From Opitutia bacterium KCR 482 (GTDB lineage: Bacteria > Verrucomicrobiota > Verrucomicrobiia > Opitutales > Intestinicryptomonadaceae), in the NCBI GenBank assembly GCA_029269845.2, contig CP149973.1:990001-1022000 (forward strand): DNA of 32,000 bases. Reading direction: 5' to 3'. Every line of letters begins with the position of its first letter. Positions within the stretch are counted from its first letter, which is position 1. A program made the position numbers and the translations under genes. Shown piece after piece: positions 1,784 to 31,377 of the stretch. The notes beneath the pieces are model-generated. The model searched no databases and was not told the origin of the DNA. It was given only the letters and a program-made list of their open reading frames with translations.

Positions 1784-4700
1784 CGCGCCCTTACCGACAT
1801 GTATTTTTCGACATCTTCGACTGCCCGACCGCCGCGTTCGGCGTAGTCGCGAACTTGGTCCCGCCCGATTTCCGCCGAAAAGTATTTCGCCGACGGATTG
1901 GCAATCCACAACGCCGCGACAGACGACTTCGGCGTCATCATGAAGTTGTCCGTAAGTTTTATGCCCGCCGACTCTTCGAGCGAGAGCAGTTTTTCGAACT
2001 TCGCCTTTTCGGAGTGGTCGGGGTATGAAGCGTAGCCCGCCGCCGCGCGGACGCCCGCGCGTTCTTTGGGAGAGTCCGAGAACACCGCGCGTTGCGCGTA
2101 GGTCGAGAGAGCCTCGGCGAGCGCGTCGCACAGGGTTTGGGCAATCATGTAGGAATAGTCGTCGCCGGCGTCCTTGAACGATTTTGCGAACGCCTCCGCC
2201 TCGCTCCCGACCGTAGCCGCGAAGGGAGCTACGTAGTCGCCTTCGGGGGCTACGTAGTCTGCAAGGCACAGGCACTCTCCGCGCGAGTTTTCGACCTGCG
2301 AGCGCACGAGCGACAGCGTTTCAATCCGCGTCCCGTTTTCGAAAAGCGCGATGTCGTCGCCGTCGGGCTTCGCCTCGAAAAATCCGACCCTGATTCTCGG
2401 CTTCGCGACCTCCGCAAGCCTTTCGAGCATTGCGAGGGTGTCCCTGCAAAAGTCCTCCGTCGCCGCCCTGTCCTTCACGCCCCAAGTCCTGAAATACATG
2501 TTCCACGGAATGTCGGGCTTCAACTCCGACACGGGAACGCCGATTGTCCGCACGCCTGTAAACGGCGGCTTTTCTACGTGGGAGAAATCGCAGACCGCCT
2601 TTTTGGAACGCGCCTCGGCAAGCGGCAGAAGTTTTTTGTGCGCGGGCGGGTTGGCGTGCTCCGCCTCGTATTTGTCGCGCAGAGCCTGCTGGGCGGCGGC
2701 TATTGAAAGGGCGAACGCCTCCGCCTTTCCGCCCATGGTGAAGTCGGCGCAGACGCCCGCCGACGCGCCGGCGTCCTCCACGCGCACGACCGTTCCCGAA
2801 TAGAGCGGCGCGAGTTTCACCGCCGTGTGGAGGTCGCTCGTAGTAGCCCCGCCGACGAGCACGGGCACTCTTATGCCGGCGCGTTCGAGCGCGGAAATTG
2901 TGTTCGCCATTTCGTCGAGCGACGGCGTGATAAGCCCGCTAAGCCCGATTACCGCAGCGTCGCGGGCGGCTTCGACGATTGCCTCGGGCTGAACCATCAC
3001 GCCCAAGTCCTCCACGCGGAAGCCGTTGCAGCCGAGCACTACCGAAACTATGTTTTTGCCGATGTCGTGCACGTCGCCCTTGACCGTAGCGAGCACGACT
3101 TTCGGCGCGCTCCCTGTCGCCGACGACTCCATGAAAGGCTCGAGAGCCGCCACCGCCCGCTTCATCACGCGCGCGCTTTTTACGACCTGCGGCAGGAACA
3201 TTTTGCCCGCCCCGAAAAGCTCGCCGACTTTTTTCATCGAATCCATCAGCGGCTTTTCGATTACCCTAAGCGGCGTTTTCAGCTCCTCCAAAAATTCGAG
3301 CGCGAGCTTTGCGGCGGACTCTTCGTCGCCCTTGACGAACGCCCTGTCGAGCCTTTCCTGCGGCGTCGCGTTAGGGTCGTCGCGCGCCTCTTTTTTTTCG
3401 GAGACGGCGGCGTCCTTGTAGTCGGCGGCGATTGCAAGCAGACGCTCCGTGGCGTCGGGCGACGAATTGAGGATTACCGCCTCGACCGCGTCGCGCAGGC
3501 GCGGCTCTATTTCGTCGTAGGGCGCGAGCATTCCCGCGTTGACGATTCCCATGTCGAGCCCTGCCTCCCGCGCGTGGTAGAGGAACACGCTGTGCATTGC
3601 CTCGCGCACCTTGTTGTTGCCGCGCAGGGCAAAGCTGATGTTGCTTACCCCCGCGCTCGTGCGGGCGTAGGGGCATGTGCGCTTGATTTCGCGCACGGCG
3701 TTTATGAAGTCTGTCGCGTAGGAGTCGTGCTCGGGCATGCCCGTCGCCACAGTCAGAACGTTTGCGTCGAAAATTATGTCGCGCGGGTCGAAGCCCGCCT
3801 TTTCGACGAGCAGTTTGTACGCGCGCTGGCAGACCGAAATTCTGTCGGAAAGCGTCGAAGCCTGCCCGCGTTCGTCGAACGCCATCACGATTGCCGCCGC
3901 GCCGAATTTCATAATCTCCCCCGCGTGCGAAAGGAATTTTTCCTCGCCCTCTTTCAGGCTTATCGAGTTGACGACGCACTTGCCCTGTGCGCATTTCAAG
4001 CCCGCCAAAACCGTCTCCCAATTCGACGAGTCTATCATCAGCGGCACGCGCGCGATTTCCGGTTCGGAACCGATGAGGTTGAGGAATTTCGACATGCACG
4101 CGGGGGAGTCAAGCATGCCTTCGTCGAAGTTGATGTCGATGAGGTTTGCGCCGTTTTCGACCTGATTGCGCGCAACCGAGAGCGCGTCGGTAAACCGCCC
4201 CTCCTTGACCATTTTGCGGAACGCGGGCGAGCCCATTACGTTTGTGCGCTCTCCGACGAAAATGAACGGCGCGCCACTGTCGGGAATGCGCAGAAGCTCC
4301 AAGCCCGCAAGCGTGAGCGCATCGGCTGTTTTGGGCTTGCGCGGCGCAAGTTTGGCGCACGCCGCAACGACCGCCTCTATGTGCTTGGGCGTCGTGCCGC
4401 AGCAGCCGCCTACCACGTTCAGAAGCCCGTCGGCGCAGTATTCGCCGAGGTATTTTGCGGTGTCCGCGGGCATTTGATCGTAGCCGAATTCCGAAAGCGG
4501 GTTCGGCAGCCCCGCATTGGGATAGCAGTGGGTGTAGCACTCGGCTATTCTGTCGAAAGTCTCGATGTACGGGCGCATTTTCTCCGCGCCCAGAGCGCAG
4601 TTCAAGCCCACAAAGAGCGGCTTCGCGTACCGTATCGACGCGTAGAACGCCTCTATTGTCTGTCCGCTCAGAATGCGCCCCGACAGGTCGGAGACCGTCA

Positions 4701-17891: not shown

Positions 17892-19748
17892 CTATTTTAC
17901 CGAATCTATCAGTTTGAGGTTCGCCTCGCGCAGGCGTTTTTCGTCGAACTTCACGACCTCGCGGTCGTAGGTCATAATGCCGTTCGTCTCGTTTTCGACG
18001 TCCGTTGTCTGCGTGTAGACCGCCGCGGTGATTCCGAACTTGCGCATGTCAACAAGCATGTCGATAAATTCGCAATACTTGTCCATCATTTCGGCGGTGC
18101 TTTTAAAATTGCTGTATCCCCAAGATTTGCGCTTTGTCCAAGTGTGGTTTTCCACAACGTAGCCCAAGCCGCCGTACTCGCCGATTGCGTTGATTTTCTG
18201 GCATTCGAGCATGAGCATGCGCGGGTGCGGGTAGCTGTGGACGTCGGTCATGTCGCCCTTGTTGCCGATGAAGTTTCCGCCGCTTGCGGCGTTGACAAGG
18301 CGGGTCGGGTCGTACTTTTTCGTCCAGTCGGCGACCTGCGCGGTGTTCATCTGCCCCCAGCCCTCGTTGAACGGAACCCAGAACACGACAGACGGGCTTG
18401 ACCAGAGAAAATCTATCATTTCCCGATATTCCTTCATGAACGTGTCGAACGCCTTTTGCGAAAATTCGCCCGTGTCCTTTTCGAGGTATCGCGCGAACGC
18501 CCACGGAGTGCGGACGTTGCCGTCCTTGCCGCAGGGCATGTCCTGCCAAACGAGAATGCCGAGCCTGTCGCAGTGGTAGTACCATCGGGCGGGTTCAACC
18601 TTGATGTGCTTGCGAATCATGTTGAAGCCCCACGCCTTGGTCTTTTCGATGTCGTATTTCAGGGCTTCGTCGGACGGCGCGGTGTAGAGGCCGTCGGGCC
18701 ACCAGCCCTGGTCGAGCGGGCCGAAGTTGTAGACGGGCTTGCCGTTGAGCGTCATTACGTCCTTCGAACGCTTCGGGTGCTCGTCTTTCGTCAGCGACTG
18801 GCGCGAAACTTTGCGCATTGCGGCATATCCCGAAACTTCGTCAACCTGCTTGCCCGCGTCGAAAAGCTTTACCTTTGTACCGTAGAGGTGCGGAGAGTCG
18901 GGCGACCACAACTTGGGATTTTTGATTTCGAAATACGCCTTTGCGTTCGCCGCCGCCTTTGCGGTTGCGACGGTCTTTCCGCCGTCGGAAAGCTCGGCGA
19001 CAAACTCCGTGCCCGCGGGCGCGAAAACTTCAACCGCCATGCGCGACTTGTCTACGTCGGGCGTGTATTTCACCGACGCCACATGCTTTGCGCCGACAGG
19101 TTCGAGCCACACCGTCTGCCAAATGCCGCTAACGGCCGTGTAGAAACAGCCCTTCGGATTGAGCGACTGCTTGCCGCGCGGCTGGAAGCATTTTTCCATG
19201 TCGTCGGTCGGGTCGACAACCTTCACGCGCAGAATGTTTTTGCCCGACTTCAACGCCTTTGTGATGTCGAGCGAAAACGGCGTGTAGCCGCCCGAATGCG
19301 AGCCGACGTGTTCGCCGTTTACCCACACATCGCAGGAGTGGTCCACCGCGCCGAAATTCAGAAGCACGTTTTTGCCGCTCCACGACGCGGGAAGCTCGAA
19401 GTCGCGCTCATACCAAAGGGCATCGGAAGCCGTGAACTTTTTGCCCACACCCGACAACGCCGACTCTACCGCAAACGGCACGAGGATTTCGCCGTCGAAC
19501 TTTGCGCATTCGGCGTCTATCGGCGTGATTGCATAACGCCAAAGGCCGTTGAGGTTCTTCCATTCCGAACGCTCCATCTGCGGACGCGGATACTCCGGCA
19601 ATACGTTGTTTACGTCGATATTCCGTCCCCACTTCGTCATAAGCTGGCCGCCGACAGGCGCCCACGCCGCATTCAAAGACGATACCGCCGATACAAACGC
19701 AAACGCCGCCAGTACCGACCCTACATTCCTGATTCTTGTTCTTCCCAT
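17892..19748 (-). CDS. Secreted glycoside hydrolase family 2 enzyme (beta-galactosidase / beta-glucuronidase-like)
   Basis: I trimmed the ORF to the ATG at 19748 (MGRTRIRNVGSVLAAFAFVSAVSSLNA, a signal peptide). The track start at 19790 is a TTG. The N-terminal sugar-binding domain has GH2-type motifs (WYERDFELP, LNFGAVDHSCDVWVNGEHVGSHSGGYTPF). The TIM barrel contains FNEGWGQ. Confidence 0.8.
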   Translation of the reverse strand: MGRTRIRNVGSVLAAFAFVSAVSSLNAAWAPVGGQLMTKWGRNIDVNNVLPEYPRPQMERSEWKNLNGLWRYAITPIDAECAKFDGEILVPFAVESALSGVGKKFTASDALWYERDFELPASWSGKNVLLNFGAVDHSCDVWVNGEHVGSHSGGYTPFSLDITKALKSGKNILRVKVVDPTDDMEKCFQPRGKQSLNPKGCFYTAVSGIWQTVWLEPVGAKHVASVKYTPDVDKSRMAVEVFAPAGTEFVAELSDGGKTVATAKAAANAKAYFEIKNPKLWSPDSPHLYGTKVKLFDAGKQVDEVSGYAAMRKVSRQSLTKDEHPKRSKDVMTLNGKPVYNFGPLDQGWWPDGLYTAPSDEALKYDIEKTKAWGFNMIRKHIKVEPARWYYHCDRLGILVWQDMPCGKDGNVRTPWAFARYLEKDTGEFSQKAFDTFMKEYREMIDFLWSSPSVVFWVPFNEGWGQMNTAQVADWTKKYDPTRLVNAASGGNFIGNKGDMTDVHSYPHPRMLMLECQKINAIGEYGGLGYVVENHTWTKRKSWGYSNFKSTAEMMDKYCEFIDMLVDMRKFGITAAVYTQTTDVENETNGIMTYDREVVKFDEKRLREANLKLIDSVK

Positions 19749-19841
19749 ATAATATGTGATGTGATTTGTAATAATAATACCCCCCCTCAAACGTCTGAGG
19801 AGCTAAAAACAACCAAAACAAAACCCCAACCCAAACACAAG

Positions 19842-19867
19842 AAAAAAAAGTGCGCGAGTCGCGCCAC
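19842..19867 (-). terminator. Intrinsic terminator (candidate attenuator) about 95 nt upstream of the GH2 start
   Basis: The minus strand reads GTGGCGCG-ACT-CGCGCAC, a 7-bp stem with one bulged G and a 3-nt loop (complement of 19850-19867). T8 follows directly (complement of 19842-19849). Confidence 0.6.
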
Positions 19868-20036
19868 CCGAAACTTGGGGGCTTGCGCCCCCAGGGGTGG
19901 ATTTCGCGTTGCGAAATTCTACACCCACTCCCCCAAGGCTGGGCGCGAGCCGCGGGCGCAAGGTGCGCCTCCCTACGGAGCTTCGGCAGGCTGCAGCCTG
20001 CACGGCAACGGAACTTCGTTCCTTCTGTTATTATTC

Positions 20037-20060
20037 GGCGCGGGTATACCCGCGCCTTTT
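20037..20060 (+). terminator. Terminator-like hairpin oriented on the plus strand
   Basis: GGCGCGGG-TATA-CCCGCGCC (8 bp, 20037-20056) is followed by TTTT on the plus strand only. The minus strand reads GAATAATAA after the stem. No plus-strand gene lies upstream, so its role is unclear. Confidence 0.35.
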
Positions 20061-20156
20061 CTGGATTAGTCCGAATTGCCTGCGGCAATTACTGGCGTTT
20101 GGAAAATGCAATATTTTGAAAAGAAACAAATAAAAATAGACGCGCTTTGCGCGGAT

Positions 20157-20193
20157 AAAAAAAAGCGGGAATCCCCAAACACGGATTCTCCGC
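20157..20193 (-). terminator. Strong intrinsic terminator closing the ahcY 3' region after the repeat pair
   Basis: The minus strand reads GCGG(A)GAATCC-GTGTTTGG-GGATTCCCGC, a 10-bp stem with one bulge (complement of 20165-20193). T8 follows (complement of 20157-20164). Confidence 0.8.
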
Positions 20194-20204
20194 TTACCGC
20201 TTCA

Positions 20205-20342
20205 CTCAACTTTTCTCCCAGAGCACTCTAAAAATCTTCCGCGCTCCGCGCTGTAATATTAGGCGCGTTAGAGTGCCGTTCAGGCGGTGGCTTTCACGCG
20301 CTTGCGGGGTGCGTGGCGTACTTTCGTACGCGAGCAATCCGC
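20205..20342. repeat. Structured repeat unit, copy A (lacks the head segment)
   Basis: Copy A is near-identical to copy C. The stretch 20265-20322 equals 27924-27981, 58/58 nt. It has two hairpin domains:
- 20223-20231 pairs with 20268-20276 (GCACTCTAA/TTAGAGTGC).
- 20298-20307 pairs with 20339-20348, enclosing TGC/GCA and the apical hairpin GCGTAC-TTTC-GTACGC (20316-20331). Confidence 0.85.
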
Positions 20343-20553
20343 AAACAAAAGTCGGCTCGCAAACCCAACAACCCCACTTTTATCCCAACGCAACCTAAAA
20401 AACTTCGTGCGCCAGCACTCACTATTTAGGCGCGTCAAAGTGCTTTCATAAGGGTGGCTTTCCTGTGCACGCAGGGCGCGTGGCGTACTTTCGTACGCGA
20501 GCGGTCTGGGTGCACAGGGAAACGCCCTTAGGGAAGTGCTTTCACGCGCCGTC
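20343..20553. repeat. Structured repeat unit, copy B (diverged, full length); it begins at the last base of the ahcY stop codon
   Basis: Copy B aligns with copies A and C over the tail AAACAAAAGTCGGCT, CTTTTATC, TAGGCGCGT, GGTGGCTTTC, and CGTGGCGTACTTTCGTACGCGAGC. The long hairpin arms are replaced by different but complementary sequence: 20459-20470 TTTCCTGTGCAC pairs with 20510-20521 GTGCACAGGGAA. The head ACGCGCCGTC (20544-20553) is shared with copy C (28036-28045). Confidence 0.8.
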
Positions 20554-21962
20554 TAATAGCGATAGTGAGAGGGTTTATATGGCCCGTCTACGGAGACGCC
20601 GATGTAGTCCGCCTGCTTTTGCGTAAGCTTCGTCAGCTTTGCGCCGAGCTTTTCCAAGTGGAGTCTTGCAACTTCTTCGTCCAAGCGCTTCGGCAGAATG
20701 TAGACTTTGTTTTCGTACTTGTCGCGGTTCGCCCACAAATCCATCTGCGCAAGCGTCTGGTTCGAGAACGAGTTGCTCATCACAAAAGACGGGTGCCCCG
20801 TGGCGCAACCGAGGTTTACCAAGCGACCCTCCGCAAGGAGGAAAATCGAGCGTCCGTCGGGGAACGTGTACTTGTCCACCTGCGGCTTGATGTTCGTCCG
20901 CTTGATGTTCGGATACGCCTGCAATTTCGCGACCTGAATTTCGCTGTCGAAGTGCCCGATATTGCAGAGTATCGCCTGATCCTTCATGTTTTTCATGTGG
21001 TCGATTGTGATGATGTCGCAATTACCGGTGGTGGTTACGTAGATGTCGGCGAGCGGCAGGGCGTCTTCGACGGTTACGACGCGGTAGCCCTCCATAGCCG
21101 CTTGGAGCGCGCAAATGGGGTCTATTTCGGAGACGAAAATCGTAGCTCCCAAGCCCTTCAACGCCTGAACGCAACCTTTGCCGACGTCGCCGTAGCCGCA
21201 GACGAGGGCGACTTTGCCCGCAATCATCACGTCGGTTGCGCGTTTGATGCCGTCTACGAGAGACTCGCGGCAGCCGTAGATGTTGTCGAATTTGCTTTTC
21301 GTTACGGAGTCGTTAACGTTGATTGCGGGAACGAGAAGCCGCTTGTCCTCCACCATCTGGTAGAGGCGGTGGACGCCCGTCGTGGTCTCTTCGGAGACGC
21401 CCTTCAATTCGGCGACGACGTTGTGCCAGTGGTTTTTGTCCTGCGCGTAGACGCGTTTGAGGAGGTCCTTGATTACCTGCTCCTCGTGCGAATCGGAGGG
21501 AGAGTCAACCCACTTGTCGCCGTTTTCAAGCTCGTAGCCGCGGTGGATAAGCAAAGTCGCGTCGCCGCCGTCGTCTACGATAAGCTGCGGGCCTTTGCCG
21601 TTCGGCCAAGTGAGGGCGCGGTAGGTGCAGTCCCAATATTCTTCGAGGGTTTCGCCCTTCCAAGCGAAGACGGGAACGCCCGCCGCCGCGATTGCCGCCG
21701 CAGCGTGGTCCTGCGTGGAGAAGATGTTGCAGCTTGCCCAGCGGACGTCCGCGCCGAGGGCTTTGAGCGTTTCGATGAGAACCGCCGTCTGGATTGTCAT
21801 GTGGAGCGAGCCGCTTATCCTCACGCCGTCGAGCGGCTTTTTGGGCGCGTACTTTTCGCGGATTGCGATAAGCCCCGGCATTTCGTATTCGGCGATGTCG
21901 AGCTCTTTTCTGCCCCACGACGCGAGGTTGATGTCTGCTATTTTATATTCCTGTTCTTTCAT
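20553..21962 (-). CDS. ahcY: Adenosylhomocysteinase (S-adenosyl-L-homocysteine hydrolase)
   Basis: The protein begins ...[26 protein letters not shown], has the NAD-binding GYGDVGKG motif, and ends in the canonical ...[11 protein letters not shown] chose the start ATG at 21962 (MKEQEYK). An upstream in-frame ATG at 21995 would add 11 aa across an AT-rich tandem 10-mer that looks non-coding. Confidence 0.93.
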
Positions 21963-21982
21963 AAATTTTGCAAAATTTTGCA
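21963..21982. repeat. Tandem 10-nt direct repeat immediately upstream of the ahcY start
   Basis: AAATTTTGCA occurs twice (21963-21972 and 21973-21982). On the minus strand this reads TGCAAAATTT TGCAAAATTT ATG. Confidence 0.6.
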
Positions 21983-22042
21983 GTTGGCATGCCATTTAGC
22001 ACAGAAATTTCCGCAAATACGGTGAATTTCCGCGCAGGTTTC

Positions 22043-22071
22043 AATACAAAATGCGCGGCGATAACGCCGCG
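22043..22071 (-). terminator. Probable intrinsic terminator after metK
   Basis: The minus strand reads CGCGGCG-TTAT-CGCCGCG, a 7-bp GC stem (complement of 22054-22071), followed by CATTTTGTATT. It lies 43 nt downstream of the metK stop. The U-tract is only moderate. Confidence 0.5.
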
Positions 22072-22113
22072 TCATTGTCCCAAATATTTTCGAAAACGGG
22101 TGGAAAGCCGAAA

Positions 22114-23286
22114 CTATTTTGCGGCTGCGGCTTTGAGCGCGTCCGCCTTATCGGTCTTTTCCCACGGCAAATCGGACTTCGTGAAGTGCCCGTAGTTCGT
22201 CGTCTTCTTGTAAATCGGGCGGAGCAAATCGAGCTGCTTTACGATGTCGGCGGGTTTGAAGCTGAACACCTTGCGGACGGCCTTTTCGATTTTCTCTTCG
22301 GGGACTTTGCCCGTGCCGAAAGTGTCTATTGCAATGCTAAGCGGCTGGGGATAGCCGATTGCGTACGCGACCTGAATTTCGCACTTGTCGGCAAGCTTCG
22401 CCGCAACGATGTTCTTTGCGACCCAGCGGCACATGTACGCCGCAGAGCGGTCGACCTTGCTGGGGTCTTTGCCGGAGAACGCGCCGCCGCCGTGGCGTCC
22501 GTAGCCGCCGTAGGAGTCTACGATGATTTTGCGCCCCGTAAGCCCGGAGTCGCCCTGAGGCCCGCCGACCACGAAGTTGCCCGTCGGGTTGACGAGGAAC
22601 TTTGTGTTCTTTGTGAGGAGCTTTTTGGGCAGAACCTTTTTGACGACCTTTTCGACAATGTAGTTTTTTATGGTCTTGTGGTCTACGCCCGCGGCGTGCT
22701 GGGTGGAAACGACGACGTTTTCGATGTACGCGGGCTTGCCGTTTTCGTAGGCAACCGCGACCTGGCTTTTGCAGTCGGGGCGCAGCCATTTCGGGCCTTT
22801 GCCGCTCTTGCGCTGTTTTGCAAGCTCCGTCAAAATTCTGTGGGCGAACATAATCGCCGCGGGCATGTATTCGGGCGTTTCGTTTGTGGCGTAGCCGAAC
22901 ATGATGCCCTGGTCGCCCGCGCCCTGTTCCGCAGTTTCCTTGCCCTTCGCCTTGCGGGCGTCTACGCCCTGCGCGATGTCGGGCGACTGTTTGGTAAGGA
23001 GGTTTGTGAGGAAGATTTTGTCGGCGTGGAAAACGTCGTCGTCGTTCGTGTAGCCGATTTCCTCAATCGCCTTGCGGACGATTTTCTCGTAGTCGAGCTT
23101 CGCCTTCGTCGTGATTTCGCCTGCGATGACAACGCAGTTGCTCTTTACGAGCGTTTCGCACGCGACGCGGCTGAATTTGTCCTGTTCGAGACACGCGTCG
23201 AGAACGCTGTCGGAGATATAGTCGGCAACTTTGTCGGGGTGGCCTTCGCCAACCGACTCGGACGAGAATACGAATTTGTCTATCAT
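22114..23286 (-). CDS. metK: S-adenosylmethionine synthetase
   Basis: I trimmed the ORF to the ATG at 23286 ([26 protein letters not shown]...). It contains [12 protein letters not shown] and [19 protein letters not shown]. Length is about 390 aa. Confidence 0.95.
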
Positions 23287-23332
23287 AAAATTCAAGTTAG
23301 GGTTAAGGGATTCTTGGTTCAAGTAAAATCGC

Positions 23333-24853
23333 TTAGTAGGACTTTGCGAATATCGCGCGGTATTTTGCGGGACGCCCCGTGAATATGCACTTTCCGCCCT
23401 TCGGCTCGCCGCCTTCAAGCGGAATGCAGCGCACGGTCACGCGCAAATCCTTTCTGAGCATGTCCTCGACCTCTTCGCTGCCGTCGTATTCGGCGACGGC
23501 AAAGCCGCCGTGGATTTCGGGCTTCTTTTCGTTCTTCGGGGTGAAGTACGCATAGAAGTCCTCCTTCGAGGAAATTTCGACGGTGTTTTCGTCGCGGTAT
23601 TTCTTTGCGCGGGCGAAGAGGTTGTCCTGTATCGACTGCAAGATTTCGGCGATTGTTCCGACGAACTCGGAGCGTGCAATGGCCTTTTTCTCGCCCGTAT
23701 CGCGGCGGGCGACGAACAGCGAATCCGACGCGATGTCGCGCGGGCCGACTTCGACCCTGAGAGGAACGCCCTTCTTGACCCAGCCCCACATTTTTTCGCC
23801 GCCGCGCAGGTCTCGGGCGTCGACGGAGACTTTGACGGGAAGCCCGCAGAATGTCTTTTCTTCAAGCTCCTTTTTGAGGCTGTCGCAGTAGGCGAGCACG
23901 TTGGCGCGTTCCTCCTCCTTGTGGAGAACGGGGAGAACCACGACATGCAGGGGCGCGAGCCTCGGCGGCAGAACAAGCCCGTCGTCGTCTGAGTGCGTCA
24001 TGACCATGCCGCCGATAAGGCGCGTCGAGACGCCCCAGCTTGTCGTCCACGCGTATTCCTGCGCGCCCGACTCGGAGAGGTATTTGATGTTGCTCGACTT
24101 CGCAAAATTCTGCCCCAAGAAGTGGGAAGTGCCCGCCTGCAACGCCTTTCTGTCCTGCATCATGGCCTCGATGCAATATGTATCGACAGCTCCGGGGAAT
24201 TTCTCGCCCTCGGTTTTGCGCCCGCAAATTACGGGGACCGCCATGTAGTCTTGCGCGAAAGTTTCGTAGACGCGGAGCATTTTCTTTGTCTCGATTTCCG
24301 CTTCCCCGCGCGTGGCGTGCGCGGTGTGCCCCTCCTGCCAGAGGAATTCGGCGGTGCGGAGAAAAAGGCGCGTGCGCATTTCCCACCTTACGACGTTCGC
24401 CCACTGGTTGACCAAAATGGGGAGGTCGCGGTAGGACTGAACCCAGCGCGAATACATTTCGCCGATGATTGTTTCGGAAGTCGGGCGGACGACGAGCGGT
24501 TCTTCGAGCGGAGAGGCGGGAACGAGCTTCCCGTCGGGCCCCGCTTCGAGGCGCGAGTGGGTTACAACCGCGCATTCCTTGGCAAAGCCCTCGACATGCT
24601 CCGCCTCCTTTTCGAGGTAGCTTACGGGAATGAAGAGCGGGAAGTACGCGTTTGTGTGCCCCGTGTCCTTGAACATTTTGTCGAGGCCGTGCTGCATGTT
24701 TTCCCAAAGCGAGTACCCCCACGGTTTGATGACCATGCAACCGCGAACGGGGCTGTTTTCAGCCAAGTCCGCCGCCTTGATTACCTGTTGATACCATTCG
24801 GGATAGTCCTGAGCGCGCGTCGGCTCAATCGCCGTTCTTTTTTCTTTTGCCAT
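23333..24853 (-). CDS. proS: Proline--tRNA ligase (short, archaeal/eukaryote-like class II type)
   Basis: I trimmed the ORF to the ATG at 24853 ([47 protein letters not shown]...). Length is about 506 aa, with no bacterial INS editing insertion. The C-terminus is ...YRAIFAKSY. Confidence 0.9.
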
Positions 24854-25085
24854 AGTAAAATAAATAAATACGGCGTCATTCTGCCCCCATTCCGCCGCGA
24901 CTTCAAGTTTTAAATGCGCCATTGCGCCGCGTTTCGGAGCATGCGCGTTCCGAAAAACACAAAAAAAGATGCCGCCGCAGCCGAAGCTCCGACGACACCC
25001 AACACACATGAGAAATTCGATTTAAATTATGTGAGCAATCAAAAGAAACATTTGAGAAAAGTCAATACTTTTTTGTAAAAAATTT

Positions 25086-25103
25086 CCGAAAAAATTTTTT
25101 CGG
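25086..25103. promoter_or_regulatory. Perfect 18-nt palindrome (candidate operator) upstream of dinB
   Basis: CCGAAAAAATTTTTTCGG lies at 25086-25103 and ends 36 nt before the dinB ATG. It follows a possible TTGAGA-N18-TAAAAA promoter-like stretch (25052-25081). A regulatory role is inference. Confidence 0.35.
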
Positions 25104-25139
25104 CCATTTTTTGTGGACGCAAGCGCATAAATACCGAAT

Positions 25140-26357
25140 ATGAAAACCATGCCCGCCGACAGGACAATCCTACACTGCGACCTCAACGGATTCTACGCGT
25201 CCGTCGAAGCCCTCGCCCACCCCGAAATAGGCGACAAGCCCATGGCGGTGTCGGGGAATCCGCGAATCAGGCACGGCATAATTCTCGCGAAGAACGAGGC
25301 GGCAAAAAAGTACGGCATAAGCACGGGAGAGCCGATTTTTCAGGCAAAGAGAAAATGCCCCAAGCTCATTCTGCTCGAACCGCACCACGAAAAATACGCG
25401 GAGTATTCGCGCAGGGTGAACGAAATCTACTCGCGGTTTACGAACAGGGTGGAACCGTTCGGAATAGACGAGTCGTGGCTCGACGTGAGCGGCTCGCTCT
25501 CGCTTTTCGGGTCGGGCGTCGAAATTGCCGACAAGCTCCGCGAAACGGTGAAGTCGGAACTCGGACTTACGATTTCGGTGGGCGTTTCATTCAACAAAGT
25601 CTTCGCAAAGCTCGGCAGCGACTACAAAAAGCCAGACGCAACAACCCTCTTCGGGCGCGGACAAACGCAGATTATCCGCGGACTGCCCGTCCGCGACATG
25701 CTGTTTGTCGGCCGCTCGACGGCGGAAACCCTGCGCCGAATGGGAATACAGACCATCGGAGACCTCGCCGACGCCGACGAAAACTTCCTAATCCGCCGCT
25801 TCGGCAAGCACGGAAAATCGCTGTCGGAGGCGGCGCGGGGCGAGGAAAATTCGCCCGTGGCGTTTTACGGAGAGGACGACGAAGCGAAGTCGGTGGGAAA
25901 CTCCATAACTTTCAAGCGCGACCTCGACGGCGCGGCGGACATCAGGGCGGGGCTCGAACTCGTCGCCGAAAAAGTCGCGCGGCGCATGAAGCGCGACGGC
26001 GTGAAATGCACGGTTATTCACGCGACAATCAAGGGCGCGGACTTCTCGTGCCTGACGCGCCAGACCACCGTGGACAAGCCGACGAATTCGAGGCTCGCGC
26101 TCGCGGAAACCGCCATGCGGCTTGTCTCGACAAACTGGGATTTGAAATCGCCAATCCGCATGCTGGGAATAGCGGGGTCGGGGCTTGTGGACGCGAACGC
26201 GCCCTACCAAGCCGACCTCTTCGAACCGCCGCAGGAGCTTTCCGAAAAAAACGAAAAAGCCGAAGACGCATTCTTCGACATTCGCGAAAAATTCGGGAAG
26301 TCGGCAATCAGCTTCGGCTCGGAATTCGAGCGCAAAGACAGGGACATCGACGGATAG
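25140..26357 (+). CDS. dinB: DNA polymerase IV (Y-family translesion polymerase)
   Basis: The protein reads ILHCDLNGFYASVEAL..., SIDESWLDV-like (FGIDESWLDVSG), and ISVGVSFNKVFAKLGSDYKKPD. Length is 405 aa. Confidence 0.92.
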   Translation: MKTMPADRTILHCDLNGFYASVEALAHPEIGDKPMAVSGNPRIRHGIILAKNEAAKKYGISTGEPIFQAKRKCPKLILLEPHHEKYAEYSRRVNEIYSRFTNRVEPFGIDESWLDVSGSLSLFGSGVEIADKLRETVKSELGLTISVGVSFNKVFAKLGSDYKKPDATTLFGRGQTQIIRGLPVRDMLFVGRSTAETLRRMGIQTIGDLADADENFLIRRFGKHGKSLSEAARGEENSPVAFYGEDDEAKSVGNSITFKRDLDGAADIRAGLELVAEKVARRMKRDGVKCTVIHATIKGADFSCLTRQTTVDKPTNSRLALAETAMRLVSTNWDLKSPIRMLGIAGSGLVDANAPYQADLFEPPQELSEKNEKAEDAFFDIREKFGKSAISFGSEFERKDRDIDG

Positions 26358-26416
26358 CCCCGCAGACGGATAGCCCCGCCGCGCAAAACCGCCAATCCGC
26401 GCCCCGCAGACGGACG
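26351..26416. repeat. Short direct repeats spanning the dinB stop codon
   Basis: CGGATAGCCCCGC occurs at 26351-26363 and again at 26367-26379 (16-nt period). GCCCCGCAGACGGA occurs at 26357-26370 and again at 26401-26414. Confidence 0.7.
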
Positions 26417-26482
26417 TTTGGCGCAAAAAAATTTCCGCGCGGCAGACAAACGCAACGCGCCTACTCTCCCGCATGCGCAAAT

Positions 26483-26512
26483 AAAAAAAGCCGCGCAGAT
26501 TGCCCGCGCGGC
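26483..26512 (-). terminator. Intrinsic terminator after the 396-aa secreted protein gene
   Basis: GCCGCGC (26490-26496) pairs with GCGCGGC (26506-26512). On the minus strand T7 follows (complement of 26483-26489). It lies 20 nt downstream of the stop at 26532. Confidence 0.65.
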
Positions 26513-26531
26513 CCGAAAAAAACTTGAAAAA

Positions 26532-27722
26532 CTACGGATTGAGCTTGCCCTCCAAACGCGCGCGCCAGTACGCGGCAAGGAGCGTGTACGAACTGCCGCT
26601 GTCGTGCGAGCCCGAAACCCTCGCAATGCAGCCGCGCAAAATTTTCTCGTGCTTGGGCGTCAGCTTGTAGCCCGGCGAAAGCAGCTGGCCGTTTATGACC
26701 TCGGCGCAGTCGCGGGCGTACTTGCGCTTGGAAAGGTCGAACACGGGAGAGTTTTCGACAAATTCGGCAAGCATGTCCATGAGGTCGCCGACCTGCTTTT
26801 TGAGCTTTTTGTTTTTTTCGACAACGTAGATTAGTTCGAGCGACGCCTCCATTTGGAGAATCGAATACGCGGGCACATAGGAGCGCATTTTCTTTTCGGG
26901 CATTTGGGGAAGCTCCGCCGTGCGCGTCAGCGCGTAGGGCAGGTGCTTTCTGTAAAGCTCGAAATATTCGGACTTCTTCGTAACGTCGTAGGCGGCGGCG
27001 TAGAACATGGCAAGCCGCGCGGCCTCGTGCGGATAGACGTCGAGCATTTTGCCGACGCCGCGGTCGTCGGGCATGCCCTTGTAGAATTTAAACGAGTACG
27101 GGGGGTTGCCGTCTTCGCGGACTTCGCGCGTCATCTTGTCGGCGACGGCGGAAAAAATCTTCCTGATTTGCGCCTTCTCGGCGGACGACGACATCGGAGA
27201 CCTGTAATAACGCCACATGCCGTGAATGCTGTGCGTGTACTGGTCGCGAGAAGAGCCGGGGTAGACGGACTTGCAGTCGTCGGGCGACACCCCGCGGGCG
27301 ATAAACCCCTCGTCGCCGTGGGCGGTTGCCGCAAGGACAAGCCCCTTGAAAAGGGCGGCGGCGCGAGCCTTTGAGTCGGCGTCTTTCAAGACCTCGTAGC
27401 GGTCGCAAAGCCCCGCAAGGACAATGCCGCCAAGCATGGAACAGTCTTCAATGCCCGAACCGCCGCCATGCCAGTTTGTCATGCCGTTTTTCTTCAAAGG
27501 CTTCAACTCGGCAATCTCGGCGGGCGACGGAATTCTCGCAAGAGGGGCCGTGTAGAAAAGGTTGGACTTCGGCGAATAAAAAGCCCTCGAACTGTCCTGC
27601 CAAAGACGCTCAATCTTCGACTCCAACGCGGCGTTGTCGTCGGGATTCACCTTCTGGGCAAATGCGAACGACCCCGCAAGCGAAATTATAGAAAATACCA
27701 GTGTTAATGACAATCTTCCCAT
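26532..27722 (-). CDS. Secreted hypothetical protein (396 aa), possibly an alpha-helical glycan-active enzyme
   Basis: The signal peptide is MGRLSLTLVFSIISLAGSFAFA. Coding-like composition runs throughout and a terminator follows. I recognise no motif with confidence, so the functional guess rests only on the helical-repeat feel and the carbohydrate-gene context. Confidence 0.6.
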   Translation of the reverse strand: MGRLSLTLVFSIISLAGSFAFAQKVNPDDNAALESKIERLWQDSSRAFYSPKSNLFYTAPLARIPSPAEIAELKPLKKNGMTNWHGGGSGIEDCSMLGGIVLAGLCDRYEVLKDADSKARAAALFKGLVLAATAHGDEGFIARGVSPDDCKSVYPGSSRDQYTHSIHGMWRYYRSPMSSSAEKAQIRKIFSAVADKMTREVREDGNPPYSFKFYKGMPDDRGVGKMLDVYPHEAARLAMFYAAAYDVTKKSEYFELYRKHLPYALTRTAELPQMPEKKMRSYVPAYSILQMEASLELIYVVEKNKKLKKQVGDLMDMLAEFVENSPVFDLSKRKYARDCAEVINGQLLSPGYKLTPKHEKILRGCIARVSGSHDSGSSYTLLAAYWRARLEGKLNP

Positions 27723-27824
27723 ATGCGTTATTCTATATTAAAAACAACACTCTACAAAAAAACCGCCCCATTTTCAATTACTTGTTTTGTAAAAAATAAA
27801 ATAAACAGGCTACACGAAAAAAAA

Positions 27825-28045
27825 CGGCAATCTGTAAACAAAAGTCGGCTAACGAAACGCCCTACCCAACTTTTATCTCTACACACTCTAAAAATCTTCT
27901 GCGTTAGCACTGTAATTTTAGGGGCGTTAGAGTGCCGTTCAGGCGGTGGCTTTCACGCGCTTGCGGGGTGCGTGGCGTACTGATGTACGCGAGCAGTCCG
28001 CAAGCGCGGGGAAACGCCGCATCAACGGTACTATAACGCGCCGTC
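27825..28045. repeat. Structured repeat unit, copy C (full length) plus an 8-9 nt stub of a following unit; it overlaps the hemB 3' end
   Basis: Copy C has the same architecture as copies A and B. 27884-27891 pairs with 27927-27934 (CACTCTAA/TTAGAGTG). 27956-27966 pairs with 27998-28008 (CGCGCTTGCGG/CCGCAAGCGCG, 11 bp), enclosing GCGTAC-TGAT-GTACGC. The tail GCAATCTGTAAACAAAAGTCGGCT (27827-27850) matches the A/B junction (20334-20357) at 22 of 24 positions. On the minus strand it is followed by T8 (complement of 27817-27824). Confidence 0.85.
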
Positions 28046-29038
28046 AGCGAAGTAAGTCAGTATCATGTCCGCTCCTGCGCGTTTTATTGACACAAGAGAC
28101 TCCCTCACCGTCTTCTCCAAATCAATCCAGCCGTTTTGCGCCGCAGCCATAATCATGGAATATTCGCCCGAAACCTGATATGCGGCAATCGGAAGAGTCG
28201 TGCGCTCTTTGATTTTAGCAATGATGTCGAGATAGTGCCCCGCAGGCTTTACCATGATGACGTCCGCGCCCTCCTCTTCGTCGAGAGCCGCCTCTTTCAG
28301 AGCCTCGCGGGAGTTTGCGGGATTTAACTGGTAGCCTTTTTTGTCGAGATACTTCTTCGCCTTGCCCTGCTGCTTGGGCGCGGAACCGATTGCGTCGCGG
28401 AAAGGCCCGTAGAAAGCGGAGGCATACTTTGCGCTGTACGCCATGATTGCGGTGTCCTGAAAGTCGCAGTCGTCGAGGGCGGAGCGGATTGCGCCTATTC
28501 TGCCGTCCATCATGTCGCTCGGCGCGACGAAATCCGCGCCCGACTGGGCGGCGACAAGAGCCATCGCCGCGAGAATCTCGACGGTTTCGTCGTTGATAAT
28601 CCACGTTCCCGAATCGTCGAGAATGCCGTCGTGCCCGTGCGAGGTGTAGGGATCGAGCGCGATGTCGGCGACAACCGCCATTTCGGGAAAGCGTTTTTTC
28701 ACGGCGGCAATCGCGCGGTTTGCGAGGGACTTCGGGTTGACCGCCTCGTCGGCGAGGAGGGTCTTCTTAGAGCGTTCGACAAGCGGGAACGGGGCAATCG
28801 CCATGACGCCCTTTTTCGCCAAGCCGTCGCAGAGGCGCAGGAGAGAGTCGATTGTGTGGCGGTAGACGTTGGGCATCGACGGAATTTTGTCCGCTCCGTT
28901 TTTGCCCTCTTTAAGGAAGACGGGCAGAATCAAATCGGAGGGGGAAACGCGCGTTTCCTCGCAGAGGGAGAGAATGGCGTCGCTCTTGCGCAGGCGGCGC
29001 GGACGCTTTTTTATATCGAGCTTGAAATTTTCGTTCAT
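28031..29038 (-). CDS. hemB: Porphobilinogen synthase (delta-aminolevulinic acid dehydratase)
   Basis: I trimmed the ORF to the ATG at 29038 (MNENFKLDIKKRPRRLRKSDAI...). It contains the RPRRLR, GADFVAPSDMMDGRIGAIR and VKPAGHYLDII motifs. It ends ...ADMILTYFADGAL, which is short after the conserved TYFA. Confidence 0.92.
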   Translation of the reverse strand: MNENFKLDIKKRPRRLRKSDAILSLCEETRVSPSDLILPVFLKEGKNGADKIPSMPNVYRHTIDSLLRLCDGLAKKGVMAIAPFPLVERSKKTLLADEAVNPKSLANRAIAAVKKRFPEMAVVADIALDPYTSHGHDGILDDSGTWIINDETVEILAAMALVAAQSGADFVAPSDMMDGRIGAIRSALDDCDFQDTAIMAYSAKYASAFYGPFRDAIGSAPKQQGKAKKYLDKKGYQLNPANSREALKEAALDEEEGADVIMVKPAGHYLDIIAKIKERTTLPIAAYQVSGEYSMIMAAAQNGWIDLEKTVRESLVSIKRAGADMILTYFADGAL

Positions 29039-29079
29039 TGTGGTTTGATATGAACCCGTCGAAAAAAATAGCAACAAAA

Positions 29080-30495
29080 ATGAATGTATCAATCCACAAC
29101 ACCCTTTCACGACAAAAAGACGTTCTGACGCCCGAAACCGACACGTTCAGAATGTACTGCTGCGGCCCGACGGTCTACGGCCCCGCGCACATCGGCAATT
29201 TCAGGACGTTTGTCGTGCAGGACATTCTGCGGCGCACGCTCGAATGCTCGGGGTTGAAGGTAAAACATGTAAGAAACATCACCGACGTCGACGACAAAAC
29301 AATCCGCGAAAGCCGCAAACTGGGGGTGTCGCTCAAAGAATTTACGAAGAAGTGGGAAGACAAATTCCACGCCGACTGCGACAAGCTCAACATGCTCCGC
29401 CCCACCGTGGAGCCGCGGGCGACCGAACACATCGCCGAACAGCTCGACATGGTTTCGACGCTCGTGGACAACGGGCACGCCTACCCCGCAAAAGACGGCA
29501 GCGTATACTTTAAAATAGCGTCGTTCCCCGACTACGGGAAACTCGCCGGTCTCGACCGCGAGCACATGGCGACGCAGGCGGTAAACTCGGCGGGAGAGGC
29601 AAACAACGCCGACGAATACGAGCGCGAAAACGTATCAGACTTCGCGCTGTGGAAGGGACGCAAGCCCGAAGACGGCGAGAACTTCTGGAAGTCGCCGTGG
29701 GGCGATGGCAGACCGGGCTGGCACATAGAGTGCTCGGCGATGTCGCGCAAATACCTCGGAGACACTTTCGACCTGCACGGCGGCGGCATCGACCTCTGCT
29801 TTCCCCACCACGAAAACGAAATCGCGCAGAGCGAGTGCTCGACGGGCAAATCGCCCTACGTCCGCTACTGGTTCCACAGCGCGCACCTGATGGTCGAGGG
29901 ACAGAAGATGTCGAAAAGCCTCGGCAACCTCTACACGCTCGACGACCTCACGGCGAAGGGCTACACGCCAGCGCAAATCAGATACGCACTGCTTTCGGGG
30001 CACTACCGCCAGCAGCTCAACTTCACGTTCAAGGGGCTTGACGACGCAAAGAGCGCGTTGGCAAAGCTGTCGAAATCGGCAAAGGCGGCGCTCGAAAAAT
30101 CGGGAATGTCGTTCGGCGATTTCGAAAAGCTCGTAAAGCCCGAAAACAACTTTGCGGGGACGATTTTCGAACCCGCGTGGAACGCACTTTGCGACGACCT
30201 CAACACGCCCAAAGCACTCGGCGAAATCTTCGGCGCGCTGCCGAAACTCGGCGGAGACAAAAAGGACGTCGCAGCCCTCGGCTCGCTGATGTACGCGCTC
30301 GGCATAGACCTCTCGGAAAAGACGGAGGAATCCGCCGCAGACGCCCCCGAAGAAATCACCGCCCTCGCACAGGCGCGTTGGGACGCAAAAAAGTCAAGGG
30401 ACTTCGCAAAAGCCGACGAACTGCGCAAAAAACTTGCGGAACTCGGGTGGAGCGTGCTCGACAAAAAAGACGGTTTCGACATCAAAAAAATTTAA
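29080..30495 (+). CDS. cysS: Cysteine--tRNA ligase
   Basis: I chose the start at the ATG at 29080 ([16 protein letters not shown]...[16 protein letters not shown]), by analogy with the CysRS N-terminus. The track start at 29038 is a TTG. The protein has HIGN (the HIGH motif) and KMSKS. Confidence 0.92.
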
Positions 30496-30501
30496 GGATT
30501 T

Positions 30502-31377
30502 ATGAAAGTAATAAGAGCAAAAAGCGCGGGATTCTGCTTCGGAGTGGAGCGCGCGATTGAAATCGCGACAACATGCACCGACGGCGGCAAATGCAAGGTC
30601 TTTACCGACGGTCCGCTTATCCACAACAGGCAGATGATGGAACGCCTCACGCAGTGCGGGGTTCTCGAAATAGGCGACTATAAAAGCGAGTCGTCAATCG
30701 ACGACCAAATCAAAGGCACTTCGCAAAGCGACAGCGTGCTCGTGTTCCGCGCCCACGGCGTCTCGCCCGACCGCCGCAAATACCTGCAAAGCCTCGGCAT
30801 GCGCTGCAAGGACGCCACCTGCCCCGACGTGGGGAAAATCGCGGGCATAATCAAAATGCACGCAAACAAAAATTTCACGACCGTCATCGTAGGCGACCCC
30901 GACCACCCGGAAGTAATCGGGCTTCTCGGCTACGCGGGCGGACGCGGGTACGTCGTCAAAGACAAAAAGGCGATAGACGCCCTGCCCGACATCAAGGGCG
31001 ACATCTGCATGGTCTCGCAGTCGACAATGTTCACCGACGACTACAACGAAATTTCCGAATACTTCAAAAAACGCTTCCCCGACACGAAGGTCATCGACAC
31101 CATCTGCGGCGCGACGAAGGAACGCCAGAAAGACGTGAACGTGCTCGCCGAAAAGGGCGCGGAGGCGATTGTGGTAATAGGCGGCAAACACTCGGCGAAC
31201 ACCGTAAAGCTTGCAATCATGGCGCAGCGCACGGGGCTTCCGTGCTTCCACATCGAAACGCTCAAAGAGCTGGACCTCGACGCAATCAAAAAATTCGGCG
31301 TCGTGGGGGTCACCGCGGGCGCGTCCACGCCCGACTTCCTCATCGACGAAGTCTGCAACAGGCTCGAAAATCTTTGA
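30502..31377 (+). CDS. ispH: 4-hydroxy-3-methylbut-2-enyl diphosphate reductase
   Basis: The protein begins MKVIRAKSAGFCFGVERAIEIA... It has conserved Cys positions and SANTVKL. AAGGA lies 4 nt upstream of the ATG. Confidence 0.92.
   Translation: MKVIRAKSAGFCFGVERAIEIATTCTDGGKCKVFTDGPLIHNRQMMERLTQCGVLEIGDYKSESSIDDQIKGTSQSDSVLVFRAHGVSPDRRKYLQSLGMRCKDATCPDVGKIAGIIKMHANKNFTTVIVGDPDHPEVIGLLGYAGGRGYVVKDKKAIDALPDIKGDICMVSQSTMFTDDYNEISEYFKKRFPDTKVIDTICGATKERQKDVNVLAEKGAEAIVVIGGKHSANTVKLAIMAQRTGLPCFHIETLKELDLDAIKKFGVVGVTAGASTPDFLIDEVCNRLENL

Follow-up and report, generated by a model that had tools for sequence, protein, structure and literature searches.

The present analysis concerns a repeated DNA element at the 3' end of hemB, the porphobilinogen synthase gene, in a stretch of 32,000 nucleotides (nt) from Opitutia bacterium KCR 482 (assembly GCA_029269845.2, contig CP149973.1, positions 990,001 to 1,022,000), hereafter referred to as the window. 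Positions are those of the window unless marked as genomic; the genome is complete, with a size of 2.30 Mb and a G+C content of 55%. A preliminary description of the window had reported three copies of the element, copies A and B behind ahcY and copy C at hemB, and had proposed that copy C replaced the native end of the HemB protein. The features at hemB are as follows.

28031..29041, minus strand: hemB, porphobilinogen synthase of 335 amino acids, ending in TYFADGAL (PF00490; E = 1e-99 to solved ALAD structures).
28031..28045, minus strand: overlap of the repeat head with hemB, GAC GGC GCG TTA TAG (D G A L stop).
27825..28045, minus strand: copy C, one unit of the repeat, with the limits set in the preliminary description.
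27921..28042, minus strand: 122-nt imperfect palindrome of copy C, predicted to fold into a long hairpin, the base of which takes in the last codons and the stop of hemB.
27970..27994, minus strand: conserved hairpin tip, GCTCGCGTAC-N4-GTACGCCACGC, invariant among the copies.
27825..27920, minus strand: asymmetric tail of copy C with two small hairpins and T-runs, ending in ...TTTGTTTACAGATTGCCG.
27817..27824, minus strand: T8 run 3' of the unit, read from the sequence.

The hemB open reading frame (ORF) spans 28031-29110, with a probable ATG at 29041. Its 3' codons on the minus strand are ACT TAC TTC GCT GAC GGC GCG TTA TAG and its translation ends in ...ILTYFADGAL, in agreement with the preliminary description, which had placed the stop codon inside the repeat. 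The base of the copy C palindrome is formed by GGCGCGTTATAG...CTCTAACGCCCC, and the folding energies predicted for the palindrome are -67.4 kcal/mol for the sense strand and -86.9 kcal/mol for the antisense strand. The asymmetric tail is the module from which the unit derives its direction. At its end, AGATTGCCG (27833-27825) and the T8 run (27824-27817) are present as described earlier; their interpretation as the stub of a next unit is weakened, since this is the ordinary 3' end of every unit. Strains carry one to three units before the same terminal 60 nt, and the ancestral tandem array proposed earlier is a plausible possibility.

Comparison of HemB in 29 relatives revealed that protein homology reaches TYFA(D/E) and then ends. 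The proteins of relatives within the order continue for 7-27 residues past TYFA, typically as K(D/E)VAxx..., and those of the solved structures of HemB homologues for 6-10 residues past the aligned TYFAxx; the longer native tail suggested earlier was therefore right. In a sister species, 90% identical, HemB ends in TYFAEYFVDRK, and the DNA homology breaks at ~28044, where the repeat head begins. A comparison with this species downstream of the element turned up no remnant of the ancestral tail. The GA of the hemB GAC codon is still homologous to the sister species, and hence the element-derived part of hemB amounts to three to four codons and the stop, so that the repeat supplies the stop and the end of the protein as claimed, and not as many as five codons. 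The ortholog alignment thus shows that the native C-terminal tail of hemB has been replaced by the head of the repeat, with the last three to four codons and the TAG being repeat sequence.

Some further observations concern the same junction in other species. In the sister species the hemB stop codon is followed by ACGGC (TAG ACGGC TTTTCAC...), which matches the start of the repeat head, and no repeat follows; this may be the footprint of a lost copy, or a chance match (~1 in 1000 per site). The HemB tail past TYFA is labile in the genus, with a length of 0, 1, 3, 4, 5, 7-13 or 21 residues, and several species stop right after TYFA. Among the short tails TYFA, TYFAI and TYFAMEV, each directly followed by the stop, a strong hairpin abutting the stop was found in three species only; as most short tails do not stand beside a strong hairpin, the lability of the HemB tail in the genus is broader than the repeat. 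A divergent member of the repeat gives hemB the end ...ARGA in another species, and a closely related congener has ...AFGE.

Variation within the species was assessed in a single cluster of 70 HemB proteins with at least 90% identity, the representative of which is 99% identical to the HemB of the window. The C-termini among the strains are DYGA, DGAL, NGAL or DYGAL, encoded by GAC TAC GGG GCG TGA, GAC GGC GCG TTA TAG, AAC GGC GCG TTA TAG and GAC TAC GGG GCG TTA TAG, respectively, and each of these ends has its own palindrome subtype behind it, in one to three units, before the same terminal 60 nt. The same tail module is present in strains with a different palindrome, and the flank ...GTTTATTTTATTTTTTACAAAAC and the downstream gene are unchanged across the strains. 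Between the strain of the window and another strain, hemB and both flanks are identical at 49-50 of 50 positions (50-nt segments), whereas the arms of the palindrome are identical at 28-39 of 50 (56-78%), with the tip between them conserved. Divergence confined to the palindrome arms argues for replacement by another copy, through gene conversion or re-insertion, and not for point mutation, and bears out the recent movement or gene conversion suggested earlier.

The repeat is a large family in this genome. An iterated nhmmer search gave 150 hits; the 78 that lie on the tail-defined strand group into 40 loci of one to four units. Each unit is built of the 122-nt imperfect palindrome with the conserved tip, followed by a T-rich tail of ~65-95 nt. 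No Rfam family matched the whole window at the gathering threshold, and with the limit relaxed to an E-value of 1 the copy C region drew two hits, both at chance level. The upstream reading frame of each array was picked locally by codon score, and a real gene ends at the head in 33 of the 35 head-complete arrays. The stop codon lies inside the head in 13 of these 33, as TGA at +8 in nine arrays (proteins ending in xGA), as TAG at +11 in two (hemB and a gene for a protein of 1069 amino acids, ending in xGAL) and as TAA at +22 in two (ending in RGVK(T/M)PL). It abuts the head (-3 to 0) in eight arrays, and in the remaining 12 it lies 4-36 nt upstream, with an older head stub between stop and head in at least seven, such as TAGACGGCGCGAG joined to ACGGCGCGTGAAA; at glgC such a stub itself encodes ...DGA. 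The invaded genes include dtd and glgC and those for a P-type ATPase, a UvrD-like helicase, a GNAT acetyltransferase, a PLP decarboxylase, a CitMHS transporter, a DegT aminotransferase, a flavin reductase and an AraC regulator, and the Pfam domains in them end 0-4 residues short of the new C-terminus. In the head frame xAC GGC GCG a stop occurs at +8 or +11 in 44 of 47 units and in the second frame at +22 in 31 of 47; the third frame is open, with a median of 141 nt (~47 codons), and is used only where the stop abuts the head. Judging from these frames, read-through into the repeat is short by construction of the head.

These data bear on the simplest alternative, namely that DGAL is the native end of HemB and that the 10-mer shared by the hemB and ahcY heads matches by chance. 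The natural variability of the HemB tail in the genus (0-21 residues past TYFA) would be in keeping with it. Copy C, however, aligns over its full 221 nt with the other copies and has 78 matches in the genome (E-values down to 1e-70), 12 further proteins are closed by the same codons, and the tail of HemB varies with the repeat subtype between strains; coincidence can thus be regarded as already refuted. The same 12 genes with head-encoded ends, together with the break in the ortholog alignment and the C-termini that track the palindrome subtype, sustain the earlier proposal of tail replacement.

The dtd gene, compared with its orthologs, provides an independent replicate of the tail replacement. 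In most of 27 other species of the genus Dtd ends in ...GPVTII(x)DS(K/R)x(K/R)(D/E/N)(I/L/F/V), a KNRDI-type tail. Here it ends in ...GPVTIILDSDGA (...DSDGA), with the junction TCT followed by GAC GGG GCG TGA, and the genus-conserved tail has been lost to the head. Within the species Dtd ends in DGA or DGAL depending on the strain, with different palindromes. In another species Dtd is cut after ...IIDS, and plain AT-rich DNA with no hairpin lies behind it.

The third anchored site is ahcY, with the following features.

20553..21962, minus strand: ahcY (adenosylhomocysteinase), with its native C-terminus ...HYRY untouched.
20363..20553, minus strand: copy B, first unit of the ahcY array, with its head beginning on the G of the TAG stop.
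20202..20346, minus strand: copy A, second unit of the ahcY array, without the left arm of the palindrome (model positions 40-183).
20157..20193, minus strand: terminator-like hairpin GCGGAGAATCC/GGATTCCCGC with T8 at the end of the ahcY array, read from the sequence.

AhcY keeps the conserved ...HYRY end in all the relatives compared. The repeat starts on or directly after the ahcY stop in this species and in two close relatives, and a third close relative has a plain terminator in place of the repeat. Exact look-ups of the AhcY protein, with two alternative start codons, matched no record. Copies A, B and C align with one another over ~190 nt, and the heads at hemB and ahcY share the gapless arrangement reported earlier, with GACGGCGCGT at 28045-28036 and 20553-20544 (the first base of the latter being the G of the TAG stop), a spacer of 17 nt and then GGCGTTTCCC. 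The identity of 58 nt between copies C and A (27924-27981 and 20265-20322) is likewise exact and is the longest exact block of copy C. A special relationship between the two copies, which had been read from it, is not upheld, as blocks of 55, 45 and 44 nt are shared with copies at three other loci; the units are mosaics of a few reused stem modules. The view that the element lands exactly at the gene 3' end is correct for ahcY, where the junction lies 0 codons from the native stop, and not for dtd and hemB, where it lies ~5 and ~6 codons inside the gene, respectively. The varying position of the junction suggests that selection on the protein sets where it finally comes to lie.

Across the arrays, head and stop are 8 nt apart in the median and never more than 36 nt, while the tail is separated from the next gene by 231 nt in the median and by at least 70 nt, alike for convergent and same-strand neighbours (Mann-Whitney p = 5e-13 for head versus tail distances). 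Docking is therefore a property of the head only. The preliminary description had argued for a targeting mechanism or a 3'-end function, and as a pattern this is borne out by heads at 0-36 nt from the stop and tails at least 70 nt from genes. The same distances speak against a classical miniature inverted-repeat transposable element (MITE), mobilised by cut-and-paste through a DDE transposase that is encoded elsewhere or has been lost, with TA target duplication and with selection alone setting the surviving sites. In size and palindromic shape the repeat resembles Correia and ERIC/RU-1 elements, fusion of RU-1 to the 3' ends of genes with loss of the normal stop is on record (PMC2759123), and many heads are preceded by T(G/A), with TAA behind the palindrome. 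Random insertion followed by selection, however, predicts arbitrary distances and both orientations, and here no head lies more than 36 nt from a stop and no tail less than 70 nt from a gene, all in a fixed orientation. Moreover, the TAA is constant whatever precedes the head and is hence not a target duplication, and the swaps between strains affect the palindrome arms only. We consider a MITE very unlikely.

The orientation of the arrays was also compared with the direction of replication. The GC skew switches at ~0.2 and ~1.34 Mb of the genome. Immediately to the right of the 1.34-Mb point the plus strand carries both rRNA operons, rpoBC and the S12-EF-G operon; skew and operon orientation together place the origin at ~1.34 Mb. 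The dnaA gene (genome 373-855, 0.4 kb) was rejected as a marker of the origin, as no skew switch occurs there and it is situated ~0.2 Mb from the skew terminus and almost 1 Mb from the origin. Thirty-six of the 38 orientable arrays are co-oriented with replication, the two exceptions being weak, divergent hits. Genes co-oriented with replication make up 51-56%, giving a binomial p of 1.3e-7 for the arrays, and the polarity would still reach p = 2e-4 with 70% of the relevant genes taken as co-directional. Copy C is thus a unit of a structured and recombinationally active repeat family of ~78 units at ~40 loci, which sits head-first on the 3' ends of genes co-directional with replication.

The two strands of the repeat differ in their predicted folding. 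The antisense strand folds better in all 39 full units (mean -83.4 versus -66.6 kcal/mol, Wilcoxon p = 5e-8), and the G:U pairs number 223 versus 45. Since the copies are related, this asymmetry stands for a handful of conserved asymmetric positions and not for 39 independent events. Its direction is opposite to that of C-to-T deamination of an exposed sense strand. The antisense strand of co-directional genes is the leading-strand template.

These placement and folding data allow an explanation in which function comes first to be weighed, namely that the repeat is an RNA element, a selected 3'-end module of the mRNA (RNase III site, stability barrier or termination-coupled regulator) comparable to TRIT (Tuberculosis Rho-independent terminator motif) of Mycobacterium and to REP sequences and spread by ordinary recombination, and that the hairpin stays over the stop because the ribosome has to encounter the stem as it terminates. 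TRIT hairpins occupy a narrow window at ~-8 inside the coding sequence (PMC3152330) and are apparently processed by RNase III (PMC13714241), and REPs at most 15 nt from a stop stall ribosomes (PMC12306157, citing Liang et al. 2015). The sense fold is still strong, at -100.6 kcal/mol for 251 nt at hemB (z = -6.2), the unit tails carry T-runs, and the plain terminator behind ahcY in relatives without the repeat occupies the same place. The strand that folds better is, however, the one that is not in the mRNA, in 39 of 39 units, and an RNA element would have no reason to shun the 44% of genes on the lagging strand. A terminator scan of the hemB 3' region predicted no canonical terminator anywhere in 27600-28100; the 122-nt hairpin is followed by TAAAATTAC and not by a U-tract, and the T-runs of the tail follow weak stems only. 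In lacking a directly adjoining U-tract, the GC-rich hairpin of the repeat differs from an intrinsic terminator. Further, the loss of the genus-conserved Dtd tail resembles tolerated damage more than design. Taken as the whole explanation, an RNA element is rather unlikely in our estimation, though it is partly compatible with the explanation preferred below. The sense copy in the mRNA would form the predicted hairpin of ~-67 kcal/mol over the stop codon and probably also sets the 3' end or the stability of the transcript; by analogy with TRIT and the stop-proximal REPs, a role at the mRNA level, in 3'-end processing or termination coupling, may coexist with mobility. Such a role leaves the strand and replication rules unexplained.

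Hairpins sharing the tip of the repeat were also found in other taxa. The 22 specified tip bases occur in more than 100 contigs among the matches listed, for which ~0.1 chance matches would be expected (an estimate assuming equal base frequencies). The taxa represented among these matches are Solirubrobacterales, Eggerthellaceae (Gordonibacter), Pseudonocardiaceae, Peptococcaceae and other Bacillota, Candidatus Merdousia and other Opitutales, a gammaproteobacterium, a metagenome-assembled genome (MAG) of Nanoarchaeota, and Halobacterium. In most of the tip-sharing hairpins listed, the stop of a long ORF is located 37-52 nt 5' of the tip, most often at -41/-38; the +8 and +11 stops of the present genome correspond to -42/-39 from the tip and are thus in the same register. 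Among the matches listed, the antisense strand folds better in 49 of 60 hairpins, and the stop codon is fully paired with its complement in the right arm in 25 of 46. In the literature the tip sequence was encountered only in unrelated primer sequences. Within the genus, the subfamily is abundant only in this species, with 49 matches against 5, 3, 7 and 1 in four relatives.

The frequent pairing of the stop codon raises the question of fold-back (snap-back) synthesis, by which the 3' end of each gene would have been copied into the right arm, the head being native gene sequence. The many hairpins of other phyla in which the stop is perfectly paired in the right arm agree with this. For the present genome it is contradicted by an identical head at ~35 unrelated genes, and by the lack of homology between this head and the tails of hemB and dtd in relatives; fold-back synthesis accordingly seems hardly probable here.

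Two features of the hairpins in other phyla may be recorded alongside, namely a shared GCGT(T/C) 5' of the tip and an asymmetric bulge, (G/A)CC..CCTT(G/A), 10-20 nt 3' of it, of which GGGCGTTTCC and GAAAGCCACCCTTA are the counterparts in the present genome. The shared flanking motifs suggest a conserved recognition surface.

The explanation we favour overall, with a confidence somewhat better than even, is that a mobile or exchanged hairpin repeat, docking by its head, captures the ends of genes. At resident heads the palindrome would be swapped or inserted anew through a single-strand event that depends on structure and involves the antisense (bottom) strand, in the manner of integron attC sites. 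Repeated rounds would leave head stubs or small deletions behind, and these could ratchet the junction into the gene until selection on the protein halts it, while copies with the folding strand on the lagging-strand template would be lost. The strict placement rules and the 22-nt tip shared across phyla point to a process on single-stranded DNA or to an unknown RNA, without a known enzyme.

Several points weigh against this explanation. Searching all six frames of the complete 2.30-Mb genome yielded no Y1_Tnp domain (RAYT, PF01797), whereas the control search matched 6 of 14 reference genomes; the genome likewise lacks RVT_1, the IS110 DEDD domain and the TnpB zinc ribbon. There is no integron integrase either, the best TIGR02249 score being 74 bits (cut-off 265). 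Within the species all the HemB and Dtd variants found among strains carry the repeat, so that no empty site came to light and insertion, as opposed to conversion of an old resident copy, is consequently unobserved. No target duplication was recognised. The idea that polarity arises through differential loss is drawn by analogy, the gene calls used for the strand bias and the frame choice come from a crude codon-score finder, and the cross-phylum sample consists mostly of related Solirubrobacterales MAGs, in which ORFs were assigned by length alone.

Eight tyrosine recombinases, Xer- or phage-like, are encoded in the genome. One Xer-like recombinase (genome 17043-17831), situated ~2 kb upstream of the dtd array, was considered as a mobiliser and its position was taken as coincidence. 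A second, with an unusually long open frame of 558 codons, lies between two arrays (genome 1,782,675-1,783,490).

[quoted passage not shown] If this is true, the C-termini of ordinary proteins would be continually rewritten as a by-product.

Among known systems, the attC sites of integrons are among the closest parallels to the mechanism favoured above. [quoted passage not shown] Unlike an integron, the genome with the repeat has neither IntI nor attI, and the base of the repeat, GGCGCGT(G/T)(A/T)(A/T)AG...CT(T/C)T(G/A)ACGCGCC, lacks the RYYYAAC/GTTRRRY core sites, any GTT/AAC-like pieces in it being of the reverse polarity. The repeat also differs in following housekeeping genes (hemB, ahcY, dtd, glgC, P-type ATPase) at ~40 scattered loci and not promoterless cassettes, in forming gene-less tandem arrays and in having a conserved tip.

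TRIT hairpins, compared here by description and not by sequence, resemble the repeat in behaviour only, their position relative to the stop being narrow and mostly inside the coding sequence (~-8; PMC3152330), as is the stop at 8-11 nt inside the head in 11 arrays of the repeat. TRIT are shorter (~50 nt by extraction window, PMC13714241), mostly bidirectional and reported only in Mycobacterium, and replication polarity, tandem arrays and strain swapping are unreported for them. The ERIC, RU-1 and RU-2 elements are imperfect palindromes of ~127-168 bp in transcribed regions, some of which fuse to gene 3' ends and add repeat-encoded residues (PMC2759123). Such enterobacterial fusions are occasional and up to ~35 residues long, whereas here they involve a third of the arrays, in a fixed frame, and add 2-8 residues; the orientation of the repeat is fixed with respect to the upstream gene and to replication, where that of these elements is either way, and no TA duplication was recognised. 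With REP, BIME and REPIN sequences the repeat shares a multi-copy, hairpin-forming, mosaic and intergenic nature, and a single-strand mechanism is assumed for REPINs. REP palindromes are 20-40 nt long with a GTAG or CGTC tag at one end (PMC3733652), and many REPs lie at most 15 nt from the stop and affect translation (PMC12306157). The repeat differs in its single 122-nt hairpin with a conserved tip, in the lack of a RAYT gene, in the docking of the head on or in coding sequence and in the near-absolute replication polarity. A few of its heads start with GTAGG (genome 506,9xx, 562,04x and 1,173,6xx), and most with T(G/A)ACGG.

With RU-1 and ERIC as precedents for repeat-encoded C-termini, the kind of event observed at hemB is already known; what is new here is the regularity of the end capture, its placement rules and the strain-variable protein C-termini. 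A repeat that looks selfish or structural sets the ends of about a dozen housekeeping proteins, and strains of one gut species differ in the C-termini of HemB and Dtd through the repeat alone. Annotators and curators of protein families would otherwise take such tails as native. The hemB, dtd and ahcY loci provide three anchored sites for which the states before the event are known from sister species.

Some minor features of the window and of related contigs complete the account. The gene downstream of hemB is annotated as follows.

26532..27722, minus strand: gene on the same strand as hemB, encoding 396 amino acids, the upstream region of which is kept between strains.

A second layer of modules occurs 3' of the arrays, consisting of a shared block, ATCCGCGCAAAGCGCGTCTATTTT(T/A)ATTTGTTTCTT, followed by the short GC-rich hairpins GGCGCGGTTATAGCCGCGCC, GGAACGAAGTTCC and GCAGGCTGCAGCCTGC. 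These modules are located at ~20100-20160 of the window, at genome 20,560-20,700 and at 3060-3230 of a contig from the ENA, and recur at unrelated loci and in the sister species. This metagenome contig, belonging to one strain, runs from the hemB array straight into the 3' portion of the ahcY array, its flank and the following gene (compared with window 18967-30538), skipping ~20553-27836 of the window, a stretch of 7.3 kb that holds ahcY and four other genes; the gap represents either a real deletion, caused by recombination between the direct repeats formed by the two arrays, or a chimera that arose when the repeats were assembled.

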